64,000 bases of DNA from Candidatus Uhrbacteria bacterium. Its GTDB lineage: Bacteria; Patescibacteriota; Patescibacteriia; UBA9934. Under the pieces are notes generated by a model. That model was not told the origin of the DNA and made no database searches. It saw only the letters and a program-made list of their open reading frames with translations. How positions within the stretch are numbered: position 1 is the first letter of the stretch; each line of letters starts with the position of its first letter. Location: assembly GCA_018664485.1 (NCBI GenBank), contig JABJOE010000007.1, forward strand, positions 4,353 through 68,352, given 5' to 3'. Positions 19,379-45,875 of this stretch are shown here, in pieces. Made by a program: the position numbers and the translations under genes.

Positions 19379-19520
19379 TATTACAAGCTGCCATGTTCTC
19401 GACTCATTCGGAAGAATGTTTAGGCGAGACTAGCGAAGGACGGATATATTTGAGATCAATTCTAGGAGCGGGGAAAACGGTGAGGAGCCGTACTAATACG
19501 TACGGTAACGAACCGTAGGG

Positions 19521-19558
19521 GCCCCGCAACACCGAAGTGGTCCAAAGATATCCGTCCC
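19521..19558. repeat. copy 2 of the ~38-bp direct repeat
   Basis: See copy 1. The repeats flank about 140 bp of non-coding sequence. Confidence 0.6.
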
Positions 19559-19560
19559 TA

Positions 19561-20685
19561 CTATACCAGATTTATTTTGTCTCCTGGGCGTAAATGCACA
19601 ACTATACTCTGCACTATACCAATCAAAATCATCGATATTAAAAGTGAAGTTCCACCGGCACTCACAAGAGGTAGCGCCACTCCGGTTGTCGGCAGTACAG
19701 CAAGGTTCACACCGATATTTACAACAGACTGAACAACGAAAATAGCAAAAATACCAATCGCTAAAAAGCTTGTAAAGTTATCACGTGCCTGTCGGGCGGC
19801 TGTCAGCATCCTCCACAGCAACACACCAATTGCAGCGAACACCACCATCACACCAATGAACCCTAGTTCCTCTGCGATGACTGCAAAAATAAAGTCAGTC
19901 TGACTCTCTGGCAAAAACTGTAACTGACTCTGAGATCCAAAACCAAGTCCACGTCCGAACAATTGCCCTGAACCAATAGCAATCTTTGCCTGTGCAATGT
20001 TATACCCGCTACCAAGTGGATCCAATGTTGGGTCTAGAAAAACCTGCAATCGTAGACGCTGATAATCGGCAAGTGCAAACATCCATGCAACCCAACCTAA
20101 CAACGCTCCTGCAAATGTGATTATTACAGCGTGATGAACCCGCAGTCCAGCGAAGAACATCACAATCATCCACATACCAATCAACAAAATAGCACTACCA
20201 AGATCCGGCTGCGCAATCGTAAGAACCGTTGGTGCAGCAACCAAAAAACCACTCCCAAATATCTCCTTCCATCCAAAACGGCGACGAGCATGCTCTCCAA
20301 AATATCGAGCTAACTGCACGGCGAGTGCCACCTTCATAAACTCAACGGGCTGAAATGAAACTCCGGCGACAATAAACCAACCTGTCGTTCCGTTGAGCTC
20401 TGTTCCAAAAAACAAAACTAAAACCATCAAAGCGACCCCAACCAAATACAGTGCCCTCCCCCAGCTGCGTAAGAATAGATGATTGAAATTAGCTATAACA
20501 ATCATTACTACTGTAGACACTAGGAAAATCGCTGCATGTTTTTTAACCAGGGCAAACTCTAACGTCTCACGAGATAACTCAACAGAATAAATCGCGGCAA
20601 GCCCAAAAGCGAACAAAACAAAGGTCGCAAGCAAAAGCAACCAGTCAAAACGCTGAAATTCTCGAAAAAACCGACTCGCAATCAT
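19561..20685 (-). CDS. SEDS-family peptidoglycan glycosyltransferase (FtsW/RodA/SpoVE)
   Basis: The protein has 10 TM helices, a large extracytoplasmic loop and conserved SEDS motifs (e.g. GSGYNIAQAKIAIGSGQLFGRG). Confidence 0.85.
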   Translation of the reverse strand: MIASRFFREFQRFDWLLLLATFVLFAFGLAAIYSVELSRETLEFALVKKHAAIFLVSTVVMIVIANFNHLFLRSWGRALYLVGVALMVLVLFFGTELNGTTGWFIVAGVSFQPVEFMKVALAVQLARYFGEHARRRFGWKEIFGSGFLVAAPTVLTIAQPDLGSAILLIGMWMIVMFFAGLRVHHAVIITFAGALLGWVAWMFALADYQRLRLQVFLDPTLDPLGSGYNIAQAKIAIGSGQLFGRGLGFGSQSQLQFLPESQTDFIFAVIAEELGFIGVMVVFAAIGVLLWRMLTAARQARDNFTSFLAIGIFAIFVVQSVVNIGVNLAVLPTTGVALPLVSAGGTSLLISMILIGIVQSIVVHLRPGDKINLV

Positions 20686-24341: not shown

Positions 24342-24887
24342 ATGGCAAAACAAACCTCGGCATACGGCCGGCGCTGGTACGCAATCCACACATATTCTGG
24401 ATATGAGGAGAACGTATCGGAAGGACTCCACCAACGTTTAGAAACAATGGACGTAGAAGATCAAATTTTTGCAGTCCTCGTTCCAAAAGAAAAGAAGATC
24501 AAAATCAAAAACGGAAAACGTAAAGTTGTCGAAGAGAAAATCTTCCCTGGATACGTGCTCGTTGAGATGATCGTTACTGACCAATCTTGGTACGTGGTTC
24601 GAAACACGCCAAACGTAACAGGATTCATCGGAGCTGGAACTACCCCTACCCCGATTGCAGAAGAAGAAATGGAATCACTCATGAAACGAATGGGTGTTGA
24701 GGAGCCAGAGTTTACTGTTGATATCGCAAAGGGTGATGCCGTTAACATTACCGACGGACCATTCAAAGGTCAGCAAGGTAAAGTTAGTGAGGTTGACGCT
24801 CAGCGCGGAAAGGTAAAGGTTCTCGTTTCAATGTTTGGACGAGAGACTCCAGTGGAGCTGGACTTCCTCCAGGTCAAAAAAATCTAG
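24342..24887 (+). CDS. nusG: transcription termination/antitermination factor NusG
   Basis: The NGN domain (YAIHTYSGYEENV) and the C-terminal KOW domain (GDAVNITDGPFKGQQGKVSEV) are both present. Confidence 0.9.
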   Translation: MAKQTSAYGRRWYAIHTYSGYEENVSEGLHQRLETMDVEDQIFAVLVPKEKKIKIKNGKRKVVEEKIFPGYVLVEMIVTDQSWYVVRNTPNVTGFIGAGTTPTPIAEEEMESLMKRMGVEEPEFTVDIAKGDAVNITDGPFKGQQGKVSEVDAQRGKVKVLVSMFGRETPVELDFLQVKKI

Positions 24888-25030
24888 AAGAATCTACTAA
24901 TCTGGCGCATAGCTGTGTCGAAATCTACGTTTGTAGCTTAACGTACGTATTAGTACGTCTGCGCCACAAGCCTCAATTTCTCCTTGCTCTGCATCCAGCT
25001 GAATAAATTCTCTGCGAATACATCAAACAT

Positions 25031-27011: not shown

Positions 27012-27121
27012 ATAAGGGTTAAGTGGTTCCCCGACTATCTGGAATCCGCCCAAGATGTACGGGTTAATGCACATCAAACACAGATCGTTATTCGCCTCTT
27101 CATTGAGTCAGCTAACAGTCT

Positions 27122-27601
27122 GTGTTTTGTTCTAGGCTTCTCTTAGGGCCATTCCTTGAGATGAACCTAGAACGCGTAAAAACGTTCGCAACAACAAGGA
27201 GTGCAATGCACCCCGTCTCAATTTGGCTGCTTAGCAGCCTTCCTCGCATCGTGGTCGGGTACACGAAGTTCATTCTGAGCGTACTCTCCACGCGGTCCTG
27301 GAAGCAGAGCCTAGCCGCCCTGCTGATCATCGGAATCGCAGAATTCGGTATTGGCTGGTTCGTCGGCTGGATTCCTGCCTACGAGATTGCCGTGACCTTG
27401 GTCACGGTCCCCTTCCTCATGGATCTGATCCTTCGCCTGGTGAACCGCCAAGTGATGCTCGGTCACATCGAGCAAGGAAGTGTGGACAACGCGATTGAGC
27501 AGGCCCTCGACCTTCTCGCCGCATTGGCACTTCTCGAGTCCAAGAAAGGACTTGCAAAGACTTCTGGATCCTCCAAGGTTGTCCAGAAAGCCGCGGTCTG
27601 A
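27122..27601 (+). CDS. hypothetical membrane protein encoded on a GC-rich (~56%) cassette with its own promoter and terminator
   Basis: It has two or three TM helices, and its codons are GC3-rich (ctg, gcc, ggc, atc), unlike neighbouring genes. An alternative start is MNLERV at about 27160. Confidence 0.4.
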   Translation: MFCSRLLLGPFLEMNLERVKTFATTRSAMHPVSIWLLSSLPRIVVGYTKFILSVLSTRSWKQSLAALLIIGIAEFGIGWFVGWIPAYEIAVTLVTVPFLMDLILRLVNRQVMLGHIEQGSVDNAIEQALDLLAALALLESKKGLAKTSGSSKVVQKAAV

Positions 27602-27625
27602 TCATCAACCTCAACAATCAGTACG

Positions 27626-27663
27626 GCCCGTCTCCTCTGGAGCGGGCCGTGTTTGTTTCTTGC
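27626..27663 (+). terminator. rho-independent terminator (cggcccg...cgggccg + U-tract)
   Basis: A perfect 7-bp GC stem is followed by tgtttgtttctt. Confidence 0.55.
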
Positions 27664-27696
27664 TCAGCCCCCGTCCACATGTTAAGATTTTCGCGT

Positions 27697-29463: not shown

Positions 29464-31272
29464 TTATACGTCCAGTCCGCGCTCTATTGCCTTTTGAGAC
29501 TGCCGAGCCTCAGCATCAGCGCGAGCCCAATGATATTGATTGTGGTTAACAAATTTCAGCATATCCGTCTGATTCAGCCACGGAGCCTTCTCACGGAGAG
29601 CTATATCGATCTTCTGACAGACACGACGATAGTTTGGATGCCCCTGCGCTACCGTACGGAGCTCAAGCAAATGCTGAGCTTCACGCAGATTCATTCCAAT
29701 TGAAAAACGAATATTGTGACCAAATAGTACTACGTATTCAGCAACTTTCGGCCCTAGAGTCTGCTCAATCTGATCATACAAATCGCTCACCTCACGTTCA
29801 AGTGCGATACATGCATCTTTCATTCCGATAATATCAACGTCCTCTGGAATAACAAATCCCAAATGTGGATTTGGACGCTGCCACTGTAAAGTACACATTC
29901 GGTGACGATGTAGGTCTCGGAAAACTCCAAAGTCGCAAACCATTTCTGTAAAAATCGGATACCCATGTTCAAAACCACGAACAGCACGATCACGCCTAAT
30001 CTCACGACTTCCAACTGCATTGTGAAGAAGCTTATAGAATGTTTCGTCAGGCAAAGCCACGATCAACGACATTAATGCTTGATAATCAGTACGTGCATAC
30101 GGGAAATATGCTGCAGCCAACATATGTTCTGCACCAACACGATCACGAGTGATTACGTTTGGCGTATTCATCACAACCACTTCTTCGCGCGACCCTCCCC
30201 ACACAAGTGCCTCGGGAAGATACGTTCGCATATCCTCCACCATCTGGCGATCGACATCCATCCAAAACTTCACACCACCACGGTCAGCACGCTTAACGTA
30301 CTTTGGAATGACCTTGTTCAAGGTGTCGTGCAGACGGTTTGCAATATCTTTAAATTCATTTCGCCCTTCCGAATACAGCCGCTTCAATAAATGCTCAAAA
30401 GTACGACCGTTAGCCACCATGGCCACATTCGTCAAAGTCGCAGCAGGCAAGAAAATTCGTGCCGTATCACAAGCGCGAGTGCGAATATCAAATGTATATG
30501 ATCGTTTGAAGGCCTTACGTTGCTTGTCGTCATCCAACTGATCAAATCTGTACTTGGTGTCATCATTCGGCTTTAGAGCGTACTCGACCTCCTCAATGGG
30601 CTTGAGGCCCTTGTAATACTCCTGGAGCTTGTGCGCCAAATCGACATACAACTCAAAACAACGATCCATCACATCTATGTACTTTCCAGCCAGAGGTGAA
30701 TTCATGATCGCTGGATCACGATAGTAGTACCAGTTATCAGTAATAGGATCTTTTTCCGTGTACAAAACGTATCGACTGGACTGCTCAATATATGCTCCCA
30801 ATCGTCTATCTTCGATCATCTTTGTAGCAACGTTTGAAACTGAGTTGAAAAGTACTGTCGAGAATTCCAACTCCTGCACCGAATCATCTCCGTACTGAAT
30901 CAAAATTCGCTCAATCAATCTATCCAACTTTCCTTCCCGCAATCCACCAATCTCCACACCGAGTTCTTTTGCTTCTTTTTCGTCCGTTACAAGAAACTCT
31001 TTTACCAAAACATCAATGATGGTTCCTGGAATTCGACTCTGTCGTGCAAGCATCGCTCCTACCAATCCTGAAAGCTTACGTCCGTCGATTGCCGTAATGT
31101 TACTTTCCGGTGAAAGAAAGAACGGTCGAGCCATCTCAAACACTTTCTCTAAAATAAATGAACGATACGGCAACGTCTGCCCATCCCCCATACAGACCAC
31201 TCGCTCTCCGGTTTCTTGATCCACAAAAACAGCACAACGATCATTTAGTTCTAGATTCTCGATTGGTTGCAT
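29464..31272 (-). CDS. thyX: tandem-domain flavin-dependent thymidylate synthase ThyX-like protein (two Thy1 repeats fused in one 602-aa chain)
   Basis: The C-terminal repeat carries the ThyX signature RHR (FRDLHRHRMCTLQWQ) and NLREAQHLLELRTVAQ. The N-terminal repeat has a degenerate RR..SSRY (EDRRLGAYIEQSSRYV) and NGRTFEHLLKRL. Confidence 0.55.
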   Translation of the reverse strand: MQPIENLELNDRCAVFVDQETGERVVCMGDGQTLPYRSFILEKVFEMARPFFLSPESNITAIDGRKLSGLVGAMLARQSRIPGTIIDVLVKEFLVTDEKEAKELGVEIGGLREGKLDRLIERILIQYGDDSVQELEFSTVLFNSVSNVATKMIEDRRLGAYIEQSSRYVLYTEKDPITDNWYYYRDPAIMNSPLAGKYIDVMDRCFELYVDLAHKLQEYYKGLKPIEEVEYALKPNDDTKYRFDQLDDDKQRKAFKRSYTFDIRTRACDTARIFLPAATLTNVAMVANGRTFEHLLKRLYSEGRNEFKDIANRLHDTLNKVIPKYVKRADRGGVKFWMDVDRQMVEDMRTYLPEALVWGGSREEVVVMNTPNVITRDRVGAEHMLAAAYFPYARTDYQALMSLIVALPDETFYKLLHNAVGSREIRRDRAVRGFEHGYPIFTEMVCDFGVFRDLHRHRMCTLQWQRPNPHLGFVIPEDVDIIGMKDACIALEREVSDLYDQIEQTLGPKVAEYVVLFGHNIRFSIGMNLREAQHLLELRTVAQGHPNYRRVCQKIDIALREKAPWLNQTDMLKFVNHNQYHWARADAEARQSQKAIERGLDV

Positions 31273-31600
31273 AGAGGAGGTTTATTCTAGTTACGTTTTG
31301 TGGTGTATGAAGATAGGTTCGTATGATGTCGGCGCCGGAACCGCCAGGCGGAGCCTGGTCCGGCTACGCCGGATACTTCACGATACAGTGTCGAGGAGCG
31401 GAGCCGCTATATGTAATTACGCTCTGTGTTGGATGTAATGTCTGTGCGCAGGATGTCGGCGCCGGAGCCGTACCTAATGTACGGTGACCAGATGACAGGC
31501 TCCTGTAAACAGGCAGTGCGCCATCACGGAGAGTAATTAAGAAAGAAAGAGGCTATCGTGCAAGCATGGCGCGCGACAACCTCCCCAGTGGGAATGACTC
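31273..31600 (-). ncRNA. GC-rich ~320-nt 5' leader/structured RNA upstream of thyX containing two copies of GATGTCGGCGCCGGA(A/G)CCG; the promoter TTGAAG-17-TAAAGT on the minus strand (plus coordinates 31603-31637) is included in the finding span 31273-31668
   Basis: The -35 and -10 were read on the minus strand. There is no sustained ORF. The two repeat copies would fall in different reading frames, which argues for RNA-level rather than protein-level conservation. Confidence 0.3.
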
Positions 31601-31686
31601 CCAACAACACTTTAGGGAATCGAGCCGAGTCCTTCAACTTTACTTGTGGATGAGTCTAAATTTTCGCTGTGCTAAAATGCGCTCAT

Positions 31687-32118
31687 ATGAATATTCGCTT
31701 TCGCCGCGTCCATAAAGACGCCACAATTCCCGCGTACAAAACACCAGGTGCCGTTGCCTTTGACCTCGCTATAGTTGAGGACGTATCGATTGAGCCACGT
31801 AGCTTTATAATGGCTAGGACCGGTCTTGTAATTGAAGTGCCGGAGGGTCATGCCCTCATCCTCGCATCTCGATCATCCAATCCAGGAAAAAAAGGAATTG
31901 ATCTTGCAAACAGTATCGGTGTCATCGATCAGGATTATTCAGGACCTAAAGATGAGATCCATCTGCTTCTGGAAAATATTACAGACGAGACAGTAACCCT
32001 TTCCGCTGGCGACCGTGTATCACAAGGAATGATCATTCCTGTGATCCGCCCAACGTTTGAGGAAGCTGATGAACTCGCGCTTGAGAGTCGTGGAGGCTTT
32101 GGAACGACGGGTGCGTAA
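31687..32118 (+). CDS. dut: dUTP diphosphatase (dUTPase)
   Basis: The GVIDQDYSG and ESRGGFGTTG motifs are present. A TGcTAAAAT extended -10 lies immediately upstream, so the start was taken at MNIRF (31687). Confidence 0.85.
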   Translation: MNIRFRRVHKDATIPAYKTPGAVAFDLAIVEDVSIEPRSFIMARTGLVIEVPEGHALILASRSSNPGKKGIDLANSIGVIDQDYSGPKDEIHLLLENITDETVTLSAGDRVSQGMIIPVIRPTFEEADELALESRGGFGTTGA

Positions 32119-39723: not shown

Positions 39724-40010
39724 ACTATATTGTGATAAGTAATTCGATTACATCAGCTCTGTAATCCACACAAAATGGAATAAGCTTGGTGTCTAAATAA
39801 AAAACGAGACAAACCCAATTCAATGGATTGCCTCGGGATCCAGCATATACCGGATGGTTCCACCCGAGTTGATCTATGCTCATTGCACAGAACCACTCTT
39901 TATACACGCGACAGGCGTGCGCTGGCTGCTCCTGGGTTGGTTAAGCCCTATCGTTACAGCCCAATTACATTACTACAAAATAGCCTGGAAAGCAATATAA
40001 TCGCCAGATA
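39724..40010 (-). promoter_or_regulatory. candidate T-box leader for thrS: T-box-like motif CUCGGGUGGAACCAUCCGG (minus strand, plus coordinates 39850-39868) followed by terminator hairpin + U-tract (39796-39835)
   Basis: Read on the minus strand, GGGUGGAACC resembles the T-box consensus AGGGUGGNACCGCG. The 5' part CUCGGG can alternatively pair with the 5' arm (CCCGAG) of the downstream terminator cgaggcaa...uugucucg-UUUUUUAUUU. An AACCA candidate specifier loop with a Thr ACC codon lies upstream. Confidence 0.35.
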
Positions 40011-45021: not shown

Positions 45022-45077
45022 AGAGGAATCTTACCAGAAAGTATGAATCTCATGAAGTCCTTGGTTTTACCCAATCA

Positions 45078-45106
45078 TTGACACTTTGTGTTAAATAGGC
45101 TACTAT
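45078..45106 (+). promoter_or_regulatory. sigma-70 promoter (TTGACA-17-TACTAT) driving the GC-rich non-coding transcript
   Basis: TTGACA lies at 45078-45083 and TACTAT at 45101-45106. Confidence 0.45.
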
Positions 45107-45112
45107 TTCGGG

Positions 45113-45428
45113 TCTTCGGACACTCGACCATCAACGAAGGATCCCTCGTGAACCCACTCGACTACATCAACCCCCTGAGGGTAATGCTCTTGGGACATCC
45201 CGTGAGCCGACGGCGCCACTGGTTGTCAAAGAGTTTCGAGAGACTCGTCATCCGACCTCGCCGCGAACGTCCTCCGGTCCCCTTCGCAAACGATACGTTC
45301 TGGTAGACGGCGCAACGCCGTCGCTAACCGTGCCGCCCCAAGTCGCCTGACTTGTCGGGCGGCTTCGTGCTTAAAGAGGTGTCATCATTTAAACCAAAAG
45401 AAGCCCTTGCGGGCTCCTTTATTTTGCA
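45113..45428 (+). ncRNA. promoter/terminator-bounded GC-rich (~58%) structured RNA, candidate RNase P RNA (rnpB-like)
   Basis: There is no convincing ORF. GGGUAAUGC resembles the GGUAACGCC region of RNase P. UUGUCGGGCGGCUUCG near the 3' end resembles CR-IV ACAGAACCCGGCUUAUCG. GAAGGAUCCC is a possible P4 5' strand pairing with GGGC..CUUC. It ends in the terminator gaagccc-ttgc-gggctcc-TTTATTTT. Confidence 0.35.
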
Positions 45429-45431
45429 AAA

Positions 45432-45698
45432 CTATTTCTTTTTCGGCTTTACGACATTCTCGGCAGCCTTGCGAACATACCCACTCATCTTGCTTAAGTG
45501 ACCACTCCCCTTCTCTACCTTCATCTTCATTGCCTGTAATGCCTGTTCAACTTTTTCAATTGAAAAGCGTACCTCTTGCAAAACATCATTAAGCGATCTT
45601 AGCATCATTGCAAGATGGTATATAAACCAGCAAACAAATGCGGTAACCCACAGTACGCAAAATGCGATTACTATCAGTAAAATATCAGCAGCCTCCAT
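45432..45698 (-). CDS. hypothetical small membrane protein (single N-terminal TM, coiled-coil, Lys-rich tail)
   Basis: MEAADILLIVIAFCVLWVTAFVCWFIYHL is the TM helix. It ends with KPKKK. Confidence 0.4.
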   Translation of the reverse strand: MEAADILLIVIAFCVLWVTAFVCWFIYHLAMMLRSLNDVLQEVRFSIEKVEQALQAMKMKVEKGSGHLSKMSGYVRKAAENVVKPKKK

Positions 45699-45843
45699 AC
45701 ATAGAATTTAGTCATTCGGTCTATTTTCGACTCATGGGTCCCGTTAGCCAGCGTCAACGTACTATTTTGTACGCCTCCTTGACTGCCACCCCTTCATCGA
45801 AACTAGCCTCTAATGACTAAATTCTATCATATTAAGTGACAAA

Positions 45844-45871
45844 CAAAAAAAGGGCCACTCGGCCCTTTTTA
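45844..45871. terminator. bidirectional rho-independent terminator (A-tract/gggcc-actc-ggccc/T-tract)
   Basis: aaaaaaagggccactcggcccttttt lies just downstream of the stop of the minus-strand gene at 45876. Confidence 0.5.
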
Positions 45872-45875
45872 TAAT

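Follow-up and report, generated by a model that had tools for sequence, protein, structure and literature searches.

The dut–thyX spacer of a Candidatus Uhrbacteria bacterium probably joins a conserved thyX leader hairpin to a recently inserted repeat

The divergent genes thyX (29464–31272, − strand) and dut (31687–32118, + strand) are separated by a 414-nt intergenic spacer (31273–31686) in a 64,000-nt stretch of Candidatus Uhrbacteria DNA (contig JABJOE010000007.1; hereafter the window, in whose coordinates positions are given unless a related locus is named). We consider it probable that this spacer is a composite, in which an old regulatory module, consisting of a promoter and a 43-nt hairpin in the leader of thyX, is joined to a recent repeat insertion. 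An initial annotation had described the spacer as a GC-rich leader or small RNA of ~320 nt with a duplicated motif and its own promoter, and had suggested that it could be a cis-regulatory RNA sensing the folate or pyrimidine state. The idea of a cis-regulatory RNA with its own promoter holds for the first ~90 nt, which contain the promoter and a covarying hairpin, and fails for the GC-rich body with the duplicated motif. The gene under the control of the leader elements is presumed to be thyX.

Loci related to the window (L numbers) were gathered via ThyX homologues, through the contigs encoding them, an alignment-based genome scan and a metagenome scan. The divergence of dut and thyX is kept in the relatives and the spacer between them varies in length, measuring ~60–170 nt in most species and 414–422 nt only in the window species and the species of L002. 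All relatives with a spacer longer than ~100 nt carry the 43-nt element on the thyX-sense strand. It consists of an 11-nt loop, NNCCAUGCUUG, closed by stems of 10–14 bp whose sequence is species-specific, and the 9-nt core of the loop, CCAUGCUUG, is invariant and contains an AUG; most relatives have GGAGG in the lower 5′ arm. In the relatives the leader hairpin lies 12–84 nt upstream of a thyX start codon that is not preceded by a Shine–Dalgarno (SD) sequence. Candidates were located by the loop sequence, and every such leader site had the stem, apart from an additional half-copy in L002 and from L012, whose stem is weaker; a covariance model (CM) recovered L091, which has a 12-nt loop. L081, a contig of the window species, lacks 2 nt (GA) within the hairpin's 3′ arm (~822, corresponding to window ~31556), which weakens the stem and lengthens the upstream open reading frame (uORF) to 13 codons; this could be a polymorphism or an assembly error.

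The stem of the leader hairpin covaries. In alignment A2, which comprises the leader hairpins of 13 distinct species without gaps, 92.9% of the cells are paired versus 68.7% in shuffles (0/500 as high), and compensatory changes on both sides were found in 10 of the 12 pairs, with a covariation score of 0.811 against 0.310. Sliding the 3′ partner by 1–3 columns, as a control, gave pairing of 33–58%, and RNAalifold independently predicted the same helix. The CM R1, built from A2 and hence from leader copies only, has the leader hairpin as its sole match in the 64-kb window (45.9 bits) and makes exactly one match per thyX locus across 452 kb of loci. Real leaders score 41–52 bits, whereas the highest score among 80 viral control loci, in which the loop and its closing pairs occur by chance, is 24.8 bits. 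The other CCATGCTTGC-like sites of the window all fall in coding DNA and have no stem. The complement of the loop, GCAAGCAUGG, was found at no conserved position in the loci and occurred only with one mismatch, in L016 and L023. With its conserved position and compensatory pairs, the 43-nt hairpin is classed as a conserved cis-regulatory mRNA structure.

The pairing is also strand-specific: the sense strand is 92.9% paired with 27 G:U cells and the antisense strand 78.8%, and the fold of the window hairpin has a z-score of −2.86 on the − strand versus −0.99 on the + strand. It is very unlikely that the hairpin acts as DNA, as an operator palindrome or cruciform for the dut and thyX promoters, or as an intrinsic attenuator. 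The element does lie in a divergent promoter region and a U-rich tract, UCUUUCUUUCUU, follows it in the window and in some relatives. However, a variable stem around a fixed loop is the opposite of an operator palindrome, the 27 G:U cells become A·C mismatches on the other strand, and the same element is found inside the open reading frame (ORF) in other species. The 10-nt tails average 4 U and contain no consistent U run, and a terminator scan of 31100–31900 called none, so that an intrinsic terminator is not supported.

Directly upstream of the hairpin lies the promoter TTGAAG-17-TAAAGT (Table 1) that the initial annotation had pointed out. It scores 8/12 and falls below the scan threshold, but this distal promoter is supported because its position is conserved in all 14 loci with a leader hairpin: upstream of the hairpin, these relatives show TTGnnn, a 16–17 nt spacer and TAnnnT, and the −10 box ends 4–27 nt before the base of the hairpin. 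Transcription is predicted to begin near 31602 and, because the conserved promoter is directly upstream, the hairpin should be at or near the 5′ end of the predicted transcript. A (C)TGTCCACA box is present at the same relative position in all 14 loci (L001, L002, L005, L012, L038, L044, L045, L048 and L090–L095), and ATCCAC is also found in short-spacer loci that carry the hairpin inside thyX; the box may be an operator for the divergent dut/thyX pair. A second, unpaired GCATGCTTGCGCA in L002 (2621–2633) lies 62 nt upstream of the hairpin loop and overlaps the distal −35 box (TTGCGC). We rejected CTTGCRC as a proximal −35 box, its spacing being inconsistent across species.

A second set of species carries the hairpin within the coding region. 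These species have a spacer of 60–75 nt and a −10 box 8–9 nt before the thyX ATG, and the hairpin is located 220 nt inside thyX, without a leader copy (examples in Table 1). The 10-mer (G)CCATGCTTGC falls at the A-M-L-A codons of the invariant peptide GAMLARQSR, in the same register as the leader copy, and the stem is formed by the codons for G-L-x-G and A-R-Q-S; the Ser codon switches between UCC and AGC within the internal hairpin while the stem is maintained. On these untrained species R1 scored 36.9 bits for L017 (E 3e-7), 31.2 bits for L027 and L071, 27.8 bits for L029 and 19–27 bits for others. Leader-type species encode the same amino acids with the internal stem lost, 4–9 of 11 positions pairing and no CM match being made. 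The exact internal sequence CCATGCTTG is retained by 14 of the 16 loci of internal type and by 3 of the 13 of leader type (p 7e-4 in a Fisher test without correction for phylogeny). Codon usage at the site is biased: 24 of 32 species use CTT for the Leu, compared with 21% elsewhere in the gene, and 25 of 32 use GCC for the Ala, compared with 28%. In synonymous resampling the observed internal stems had P values of 0.0003–0.04 in most internal-type loci and 0.10–0.28 in three, the GC-rich L055 and L093 plus L020.

Internal-type species are found on deep branches of a neighbour-joining ThyX tree and in one clade that is nested within the leader-type species; therefore the internal position is probably ancestral and the two states would have turned over more than once. 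The window leader and its own internal site are similar (score 30, 0/2,000 shuffles as high). The leader hairpin was nevertheless rejected as a recent duplicate or gene-conversion partner of each species' own internal site (flank similarity 5.0 to the same species' site versus 4.86 to the sites of other species, permutation p 0.41), and a duplication origin is unproven because only the loop core is shared.

A thyX-sense transcript from the distal promoter would carry the hairpin at its 5′ end. We put about equal weight for and against the reading that a trans-acting factor, most simply a protein, recognises the hairpin as its site on the thyX mRNA. The factor would read the invariant loop, the stem would merely present the loop, and binding would set the translation or the stability of the thyX message. 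The reading follows from an invariant 9-nt loop on a freely varying stem, and from an element that is used both in the 5′ untranslated region (UTR) and 220 nt into the ORF, and a recognition site would explain how it can work at both positions. ThyX itself is one candidate for the factor, although a rather unlikely one. Several points weigh against a recognition site. Such a factor is wholly hypothetical, the sites in the internal-type alignment were chosen for their pairing and vary little, and in leader-type loci a factor-free function is possible, for example as a 5′ stabiliser hairpin or as an SD-plus-AUG start of a coupling uORF.

The last of these can be stated as a full alternative, in which the hairpin is a ribosome entry site that needs no trans factor: GGAGG would serve as the SD sequence, the loop AUG would start a uORF coupled to the SD-less thyX AUG, and the stem would tune access or protect the 5′ end. 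Ten of 15 leaders have GGAGG 9–15 nt upstream of the loop AUG, in a genome otherwise without SD enrichment (within the window, an SD-like 4-mer precedes 4 of 42 long ORFs, equal to the 9.8% background), and the thyX AUG itself never has an SD. The uORFs that start at the loop AUG are 3–14 codons long in the relatives and end 9–57 nt before thyX, or, in L092, overlap the thyX start by 8 nt; only L001, L012 and L090 have a loop AUG that shares the reading frame of thyX, and in L002 the uORF is extended to 75 codons by an insertion of ~277 nt. The hairpin is, moreover, at or within ~20 nt of the predicted 5′ end. We still judge an entry site unlikely. It leaves the invariance of all nine loop nucleotides unexplained, four leader-type loci have no GGAGG, and in the window the uORF stops 280 nt upstream of the thyX AUG. 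It also does not explain why internal-type species, whose thyX looks leaderless, keep the hairpin and its loop by synonymous codons; neither SD–uORF coupling nor a 5′ stabiliser accounts for the internal version.

The GC-rich body of the spacer does not share this conservation. The ~255 nt between the hairpin and the thyX AUG (31539–31285) show no similarity to any related locus, so that the body and its motif, as a conserved RNA, are absent from every homologous locus in other species and are not classed as a conserved cis-regulatory structure. The leader hairpin and the internal site are 510 nt apart in the window, compared with 260 nt in L001, L005 and L045. Five contigs of the window species, obtained from different samples, carry the insert unchanged, and their sole difference is the 2-nt deletion of L081, which falls in the conserved hairpin and not in the insert; because the insert is invariant within the species no covariation can be read in it. 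All this points to an apparently recent insertion of ~255 nt between the hairpin and the thyX AUG in this species only. An unrelated insertion of ~277 nt is located at the same place in L002 (2700–3000).

The insert has a GC content of 53.9%, within the top 5% of windows but not extreme against the window mean of 45.7% (standard deviation 4.4), so that the initial annotation's contrast with a low-GC genome stands only in part. The duplicated motif is real: the 19-mer GATGTCGGCGCCGGARCCG occurs exactly twice in the 64 kb versus 0.01 times expected. The two copies, at 31325 and 31452, are 127 nt apart rather than the ~160 nt first given and the repeat extends beyond the motif, its identity being 85% over 27 nt and 75% over 57 nt. 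We rejected the 19-mer as a widespread viral, phage or plasmid element, its exact matches being those of chance in GC-rich coding DNA with dissimilar flanks, and the repeat units as diverged copies of the leader hairpin (p 0.05–0.34). Because 127 mod 3 = 1, the copies stand in different reading frames, as had been stated, which speaks against a coding origin. We give next to no credence to a degraded coding remnant or a small protein in the spacer. Gene callers annotated a 54-aa ORF (31323–31487, +) in three assemblies, but it matches only itself among 5.8 billion proteins, and ten stop-free pieces from the six frames all stay below the Pfam cut-offs (best UvrB, E 0.05, 13.9 bits versus a cut-off of 27). 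The insert shows no coding signal, which disposes of the coding remnant that the initial annotation had allowed for and leaves the spacer, lying between thyX and dut, as non-coding.

Highly improbable, in our view, is that the entire leader of ~320 nt works as a single riboswitch-like sensor that reads the folate or pyrimidine state with two aptamer-like units in tandem. On the thyX-sense strand the fold of the leader is somewhat better than that of shuffles (z −2.69), each repeat unit couples a small hairpin with the conserved motif, and the surrounding genes form a cluster for the synthesis of deoxythymidine monophosphate (dTMP), comprising dCMP deaminase, folA, thyX, dut and tmk. The body is, however, missing in all other species, including the closest at 81% ThyX identity; the second unit has no significant structure (z −0.6); and the first is a member of a dispersed repeat whose opposite strand folds 19 kcal/mol better. 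Nor does the sensor belong to any Rfam family. The Rfam covariance models made zero matches at gathering score across the whole window and, even at E ≤ 10 over 31100–31800, returned only a spurious mir-370 (18 bits versus a gathering score of 70) on the small hairpin of the second repeat copy. ARAGORN found no tRNA or tmRNA. Together, Rfam and ARAGORN rule out tmRNA, SRP, 6S, RNase P and riboswitch (THF, THF-II or ZTP) identities, so that the weak SRP-like similarity and the riboswitch suggested at first fall away and the stated lack of a tmRNA or RNase P match is borne out.

The dispersed repeat, which we term the E family, supplies the identity of the insert. The insert consists of an intact copy, E1, which is 5 nt away from the thyX hairpin's U-rich tail, and a decayed tandem copy, E1′. 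E1 folds at −62 kcal/mol (z −6.69) on the + strand, with 8 G:U pairs, versus −42.6 kcal/mol (z −3.24) on the − strand; its better-folding strand is thus antisense to thyX. The 5′ arm of E1′ (31288–31343; first 57 nt) is 75% identical to that of E1, and comparison of the two units gave a score of 58 (0/2,000 shuffles as high). The tip of E1′ differs, consisting of a small hairpin CCAGGC-GGA-GCCUGG (31344–31358) followed by UCCGGC-UAC-GCCGGA (31359–31373), and no significant fold was found for this copy (z −0.6 and −0.8). The duplicated 21-nt motif of the initial annotation is the inner 5′ arm of E1 and E1′, beside the conserved apex.

The window contains at least three further members, E2, E3 and E4 (Table 1). 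The four elements are 125–139 nt long and form hairpins of 42–50 bp with z-scores of −6.6 to −8.1 and no coding signal found; E1 is the most stable 135-nt window of the 64 kb, and E1 and E3 are the two most stable. All four are intergenic and their orientation to neighbouring genes is mixed. They share a tip of the form (G)GAG-N-CGUAC, 5–6 nt, GUACG-N-U-R-A-C, and the pattern CGTACN{3,9}GTACG occurs five times in the window versus 0.15 expected; the fifth site, at 1847, was discarded as coding DNA that forms no long hairpin. Only this apex of ~25 nt aligns significantly between copies, the arms being unrelated but paired, with the exception of the tandem E1/E1′. In the orientation that the apex defines, the four hairpins contain 22 G:U pairs versus 4 A·C oppositions (p 5e-4), and that strand gives the more stable fold for each of E1–E4. 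About 95 related loci lack the apex pattern, the exceptions being a remnant in the L002 insert and a short hairpin in L017. The L002 insert was rejected as the same element: it has an E2-like apex at 2917–2939 (p ~0.003) but no long hairpin (z > 0) and is otherwise dissimilar, making it a remnant at most. E2 and E4 have a common flank, composed of the terminator-like hairpin, TGTTTG, ~12 nt and (A/G)AGAATTTA.

On present sequence, the E family appears to behave as a repeat of the MITE (miniature inverted-repeat transposable element) or REPIN type, an atypical one with a conserved tip only and strand-specific stem pairing: its members are small and non-coding, form a hairpin over the whole element and occupy several unrelated places in 64 kb. 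Certain observations argue against this assignment. Similarity along the whole length of the copies, the norm for mobile elements, is not seen, only the apex being shared; no transposase was identified in a search within the window; and no target-site duplication was identified, the element ends (TAATTA, AGAATTTA) not permitting a duplication to be called. The scan, moreover, covers 64 kb of a genome of roughly 1 Mb.

Could the E elements instead be small RNA genes in the apex orientation, E1 giving a + strand RNA of ~130 nt antisense to the thyX leader that may act on thyX? The greater stability of all four in that orientation and the excess of G:U pairs would fit, as would stems that differ between copies and are all still paired, and the conserved apex is flanked by tandem purine oppositions (GGAG / UGAC) and so resembles a protein-binding motif. 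We find small RNA genes improbable, however. No + strand promoter is predicted upstream of E1, nor one beside E2, E3 or E4 in their own orientation; the orientations are mixed, and gene ends or terminators adjoin three of the four copies, which is also the case for REP or MITE repeats; and the apex pattern is missing from the related loci apart from the two traces in L002 and L017. A repeat of the MITE or REPIN type remains our reading of E1 and E1′.

The insertion displaced the ancestral hairpin and its four-codon uORF (MLAR-stop) to 280 nt from the thyX AUG. The sole report of the promoter scan is a proximal promoter-like site, TTCATA-16-TAGAAT, in the outer end of E1′, whose −10 box ends 11 nt before the thyX ATG. 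This geometry is the same as that of other genes in the window: a −10 box (at least 5/6) ends 5–12 nt before the start codon in 10 of 43 genes, thyX and dut included, versus a background of 2%. From −10 boxes that abut start codons it follows that leaderless or nearly leaderless mRNAs seem common in this genome. The anti-SD-like CCUCCU that the initial annotation placed before the thyX AUG is present and directly adjacent, but it is not peculiar to thyX, TCCT or CCTC occurring in the last 10 nt before the start in 6 of 43 genes against a 4.4% background.

We regard it as an evenly balanced proposition that the insertion uncoupled thyX from its ancestral leader, so that the gene would now be transcribed mainly from the proximal site as a nearly leaderless mRNA. 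The ~320-nt leader of the initial annotation keeps the conserved position of its distal promoter, but with a proximal promoter of the type usual in this genome the long leader may not be the main mRNA. Alternatively, the 5′ hairpin may remain able to act, as part of a thyX leader of 330 nt. The window hairpin is still intact, at its full R1 score of 45.9 bits, which counts against an uncoupling that is in any case not proven. Also against it, GGGGAGGUU could pair with AACCUCCUC next to the thyX AUG (−15.5 kcal/mol), although 6.6% of arbitrary 22-nt windows pair as well.

Table 1 Positions of the elements and genes discussed (window coordinates, except for loci named)
Feature	Position	Strand	Description
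thyX leader hairpin, 43 nt	31545..31587	−	Arms 31583–31572 / 31560–31549; loop CGCCAUGCUUG 31571–31561; GGAGG 31584–31580 in lower 5′ arm
Mini uORF	31553..31567	−	AUG CUU GCA CGA UAG = MLAR-stop, starting at loop AUG
Distal thyX promoter	31609..31637	−	−35 TTGAAG (31637–31632), 17-nt spacer, −10 TAAAGT (31614–31609)
ATCCACA box	31645..31651	−	Window version of conserved (C)TGTCCACA(G) box; 7–9 nt upstream of distal −35
Internal site	31031..31073	−	Codons G-L-V-G-A-M-L-A-R-Q-S, core CGAUGCUUG; stem lost in window (6/11 positions pair), no CM match
Internal hairpin, examples	L010 2670–2712, L011 2685–2727, L017 2673–2715, L027 1243–1285, L029 2637–2679, others		Without leader copy
Proximal promoter-like site	31284..31311	−	TTCATA-16-TAGAAT; in outer end of E1′
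E1	31414..31539	+	Intact 126-nt repeat, ~50 bp hairpin; apex GGAGCCGUAC-CUAAU-GUACGGUGAC; motif copy 31452–31470
E1′	31285..31411	+	Decayed second copy, tandem with E1; motif copy 31325–31343; 3′ arm degenerate
E2	45695–45833	−	−54.7 kcal/mol, z −8.1; ~20 nt from terminator-like hairpin
E3	19432–19563	+	−61 kcal/mol, z −6.9; starts at stop codon
E4	~24886–25014	−	−49.9 kcal/mol, z −6.6; ~20 nt from terminator-like hairpin
thyX	29464–31272	−	Tandem-domain flavin-dependent thymidylate synthase, 602 aa; Pfam Thy1, two stretches, E 8e-31
dut (dUTPase)	31673..32118, ATG 31687	+	−10 box TAAAAT (31673–31678), 8 nt before ATG

The ThyX protein of the window is 100% identical to an NCBI protein labelled Candidatus Uhrbacteria. 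The divergent dut, judged by its −10 box, looks like a leaderless-type gene. In L095, folA lies between dut and thyX, and the hairpin (581–623) is found ahead of folA, 37 nt before its start, where it would stand at the head of a folA–thyX operon. Among the other stable folds of the window is a multibranched 135-nt segment (45286–45420, −; −57.6 kcal/mol) with five hairpins and no Rfam match, in the 850-nt intergenic region 45022–45875 beside E2. Also among the most stable windows are 27046–27675, which overlaps a doubtful GTG-start ORF (27122–27601), the intergenic 39796–39930 (−) and 61–195 (−), the last with only 39% GC; they fold at −51 to −56 kcal/mol and have no Rfam match.

Two elements are new here, the conserved hairpin with its alternation between leader and ORF, and the E family; neither matches Rfam, which holds no regulatory RNA matching the thyX leader, and our literature searches found no description of the thyX hairpin, of the E family or of any thyX regulatory RNA. 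The hairpin offers a testable handle on the control of dTMP synthesis in Uhrbacteria, which are not culturable and seem to do without ordinary SD-based translational control. The occurrence of one copy per locus, at either position, is a natural experiment on whether an mRNA element works independently of its position. The E hairpins indicate that even ~1-Mb genomes of the Candidate Phyla Radiation (CPR) carry dispersed structured repeats able to enter leaders and to bring new promoters. For genome scanning there is a caution, in that the eye-catching GC-rich motif belongs to a repeat insertion and the conserved signal is a 43-nt stretch at its edge. More speculatively, and we hold this to be doubtful, the CCAUGCUUG-loop hairpin might be an operator through which ThyX, or another dTMP or folate enzyme, represses itself when substrates are scarce, and which would have been relocated between ORF and 5′ UTR, and the E hairpins might be a new strand-specific class of CPR element with a protein-recognised apex rather than ordinary MITEs.

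The folate and nucleotide riboswitches (THF, THF-II/folE, ZTP and 2′-dG) and the tmRNA of Pelagibacter resemble the spacer in their context, that of a leader in one-carbon or dTMP metabolism and a relatively GC-rich spacer. In Pelagibacter a GC-rich housekeeping RNA, the tmRNA, lies beside thyX (PMC2704228). Unlike these, the spacer studied here gives no match to a covariance model of Rfam and no tmRNA with ARAGORN, and the body of the leader is not conserved.

Small palindromic intergenic repeats (MITEs, ERIC/IRU, Correia elements and REPINs) have general properties that are covered in a review (PMC3184786). The E elements are like MITEs, ERIC/IRU, Correia elements and REP doublets (REPINs) in being multi-copy, intergenic, non-coding and near-perfect hairpins with inverted ends, often close to gene ends or terminators, that can carry outward-facing promoter-like boxes. 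Classical MITE families are alike along their whole length, whereas the E copies share only the ~25-nt apex and have arms that are paired with a G:U strand bias.

Protein-binding operator hairpins on phage and bacterial mRNAs include the MS2 coat-protein operator and ribosomal-protein leaders. The thyX element has in common with them a short hairpin with a fixed loop and a covarying stem, and a start codon and SD-like GGAGG in or beside it. Those operators sit at the regulated start, whereas the thyX hairpin can also lie 220 nt into the coding sequence and belongs to a lineage in which SD sequences are hardly used.

The nearest precedent is the translational autoregulation of ThyA or thymidylate synthase (TS), in which the product of a dTMP synthesis gene binds its own message. 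Ligand-free human TS binds its mRNA at a stem-loop whose apical loop holds the start codon (site 1) and at another site within the coding region; binding represses translation (PMC4274661). ThyX differs from TS in having an unrelated fold, the loop AUG is usually the start of a uORF and not of thyX, and each thyX mRNA has one site, not two; our literature search found no report of ThyX binding RNA. The likeness lies in a dTMP synthesis gene whose message has a hairpin presenting an AUG in its loop, here an invariant one, at the 5′ end or in the coding region. If true, a ThyX operator would be the counterpart of ThyA/TS autoregulation.

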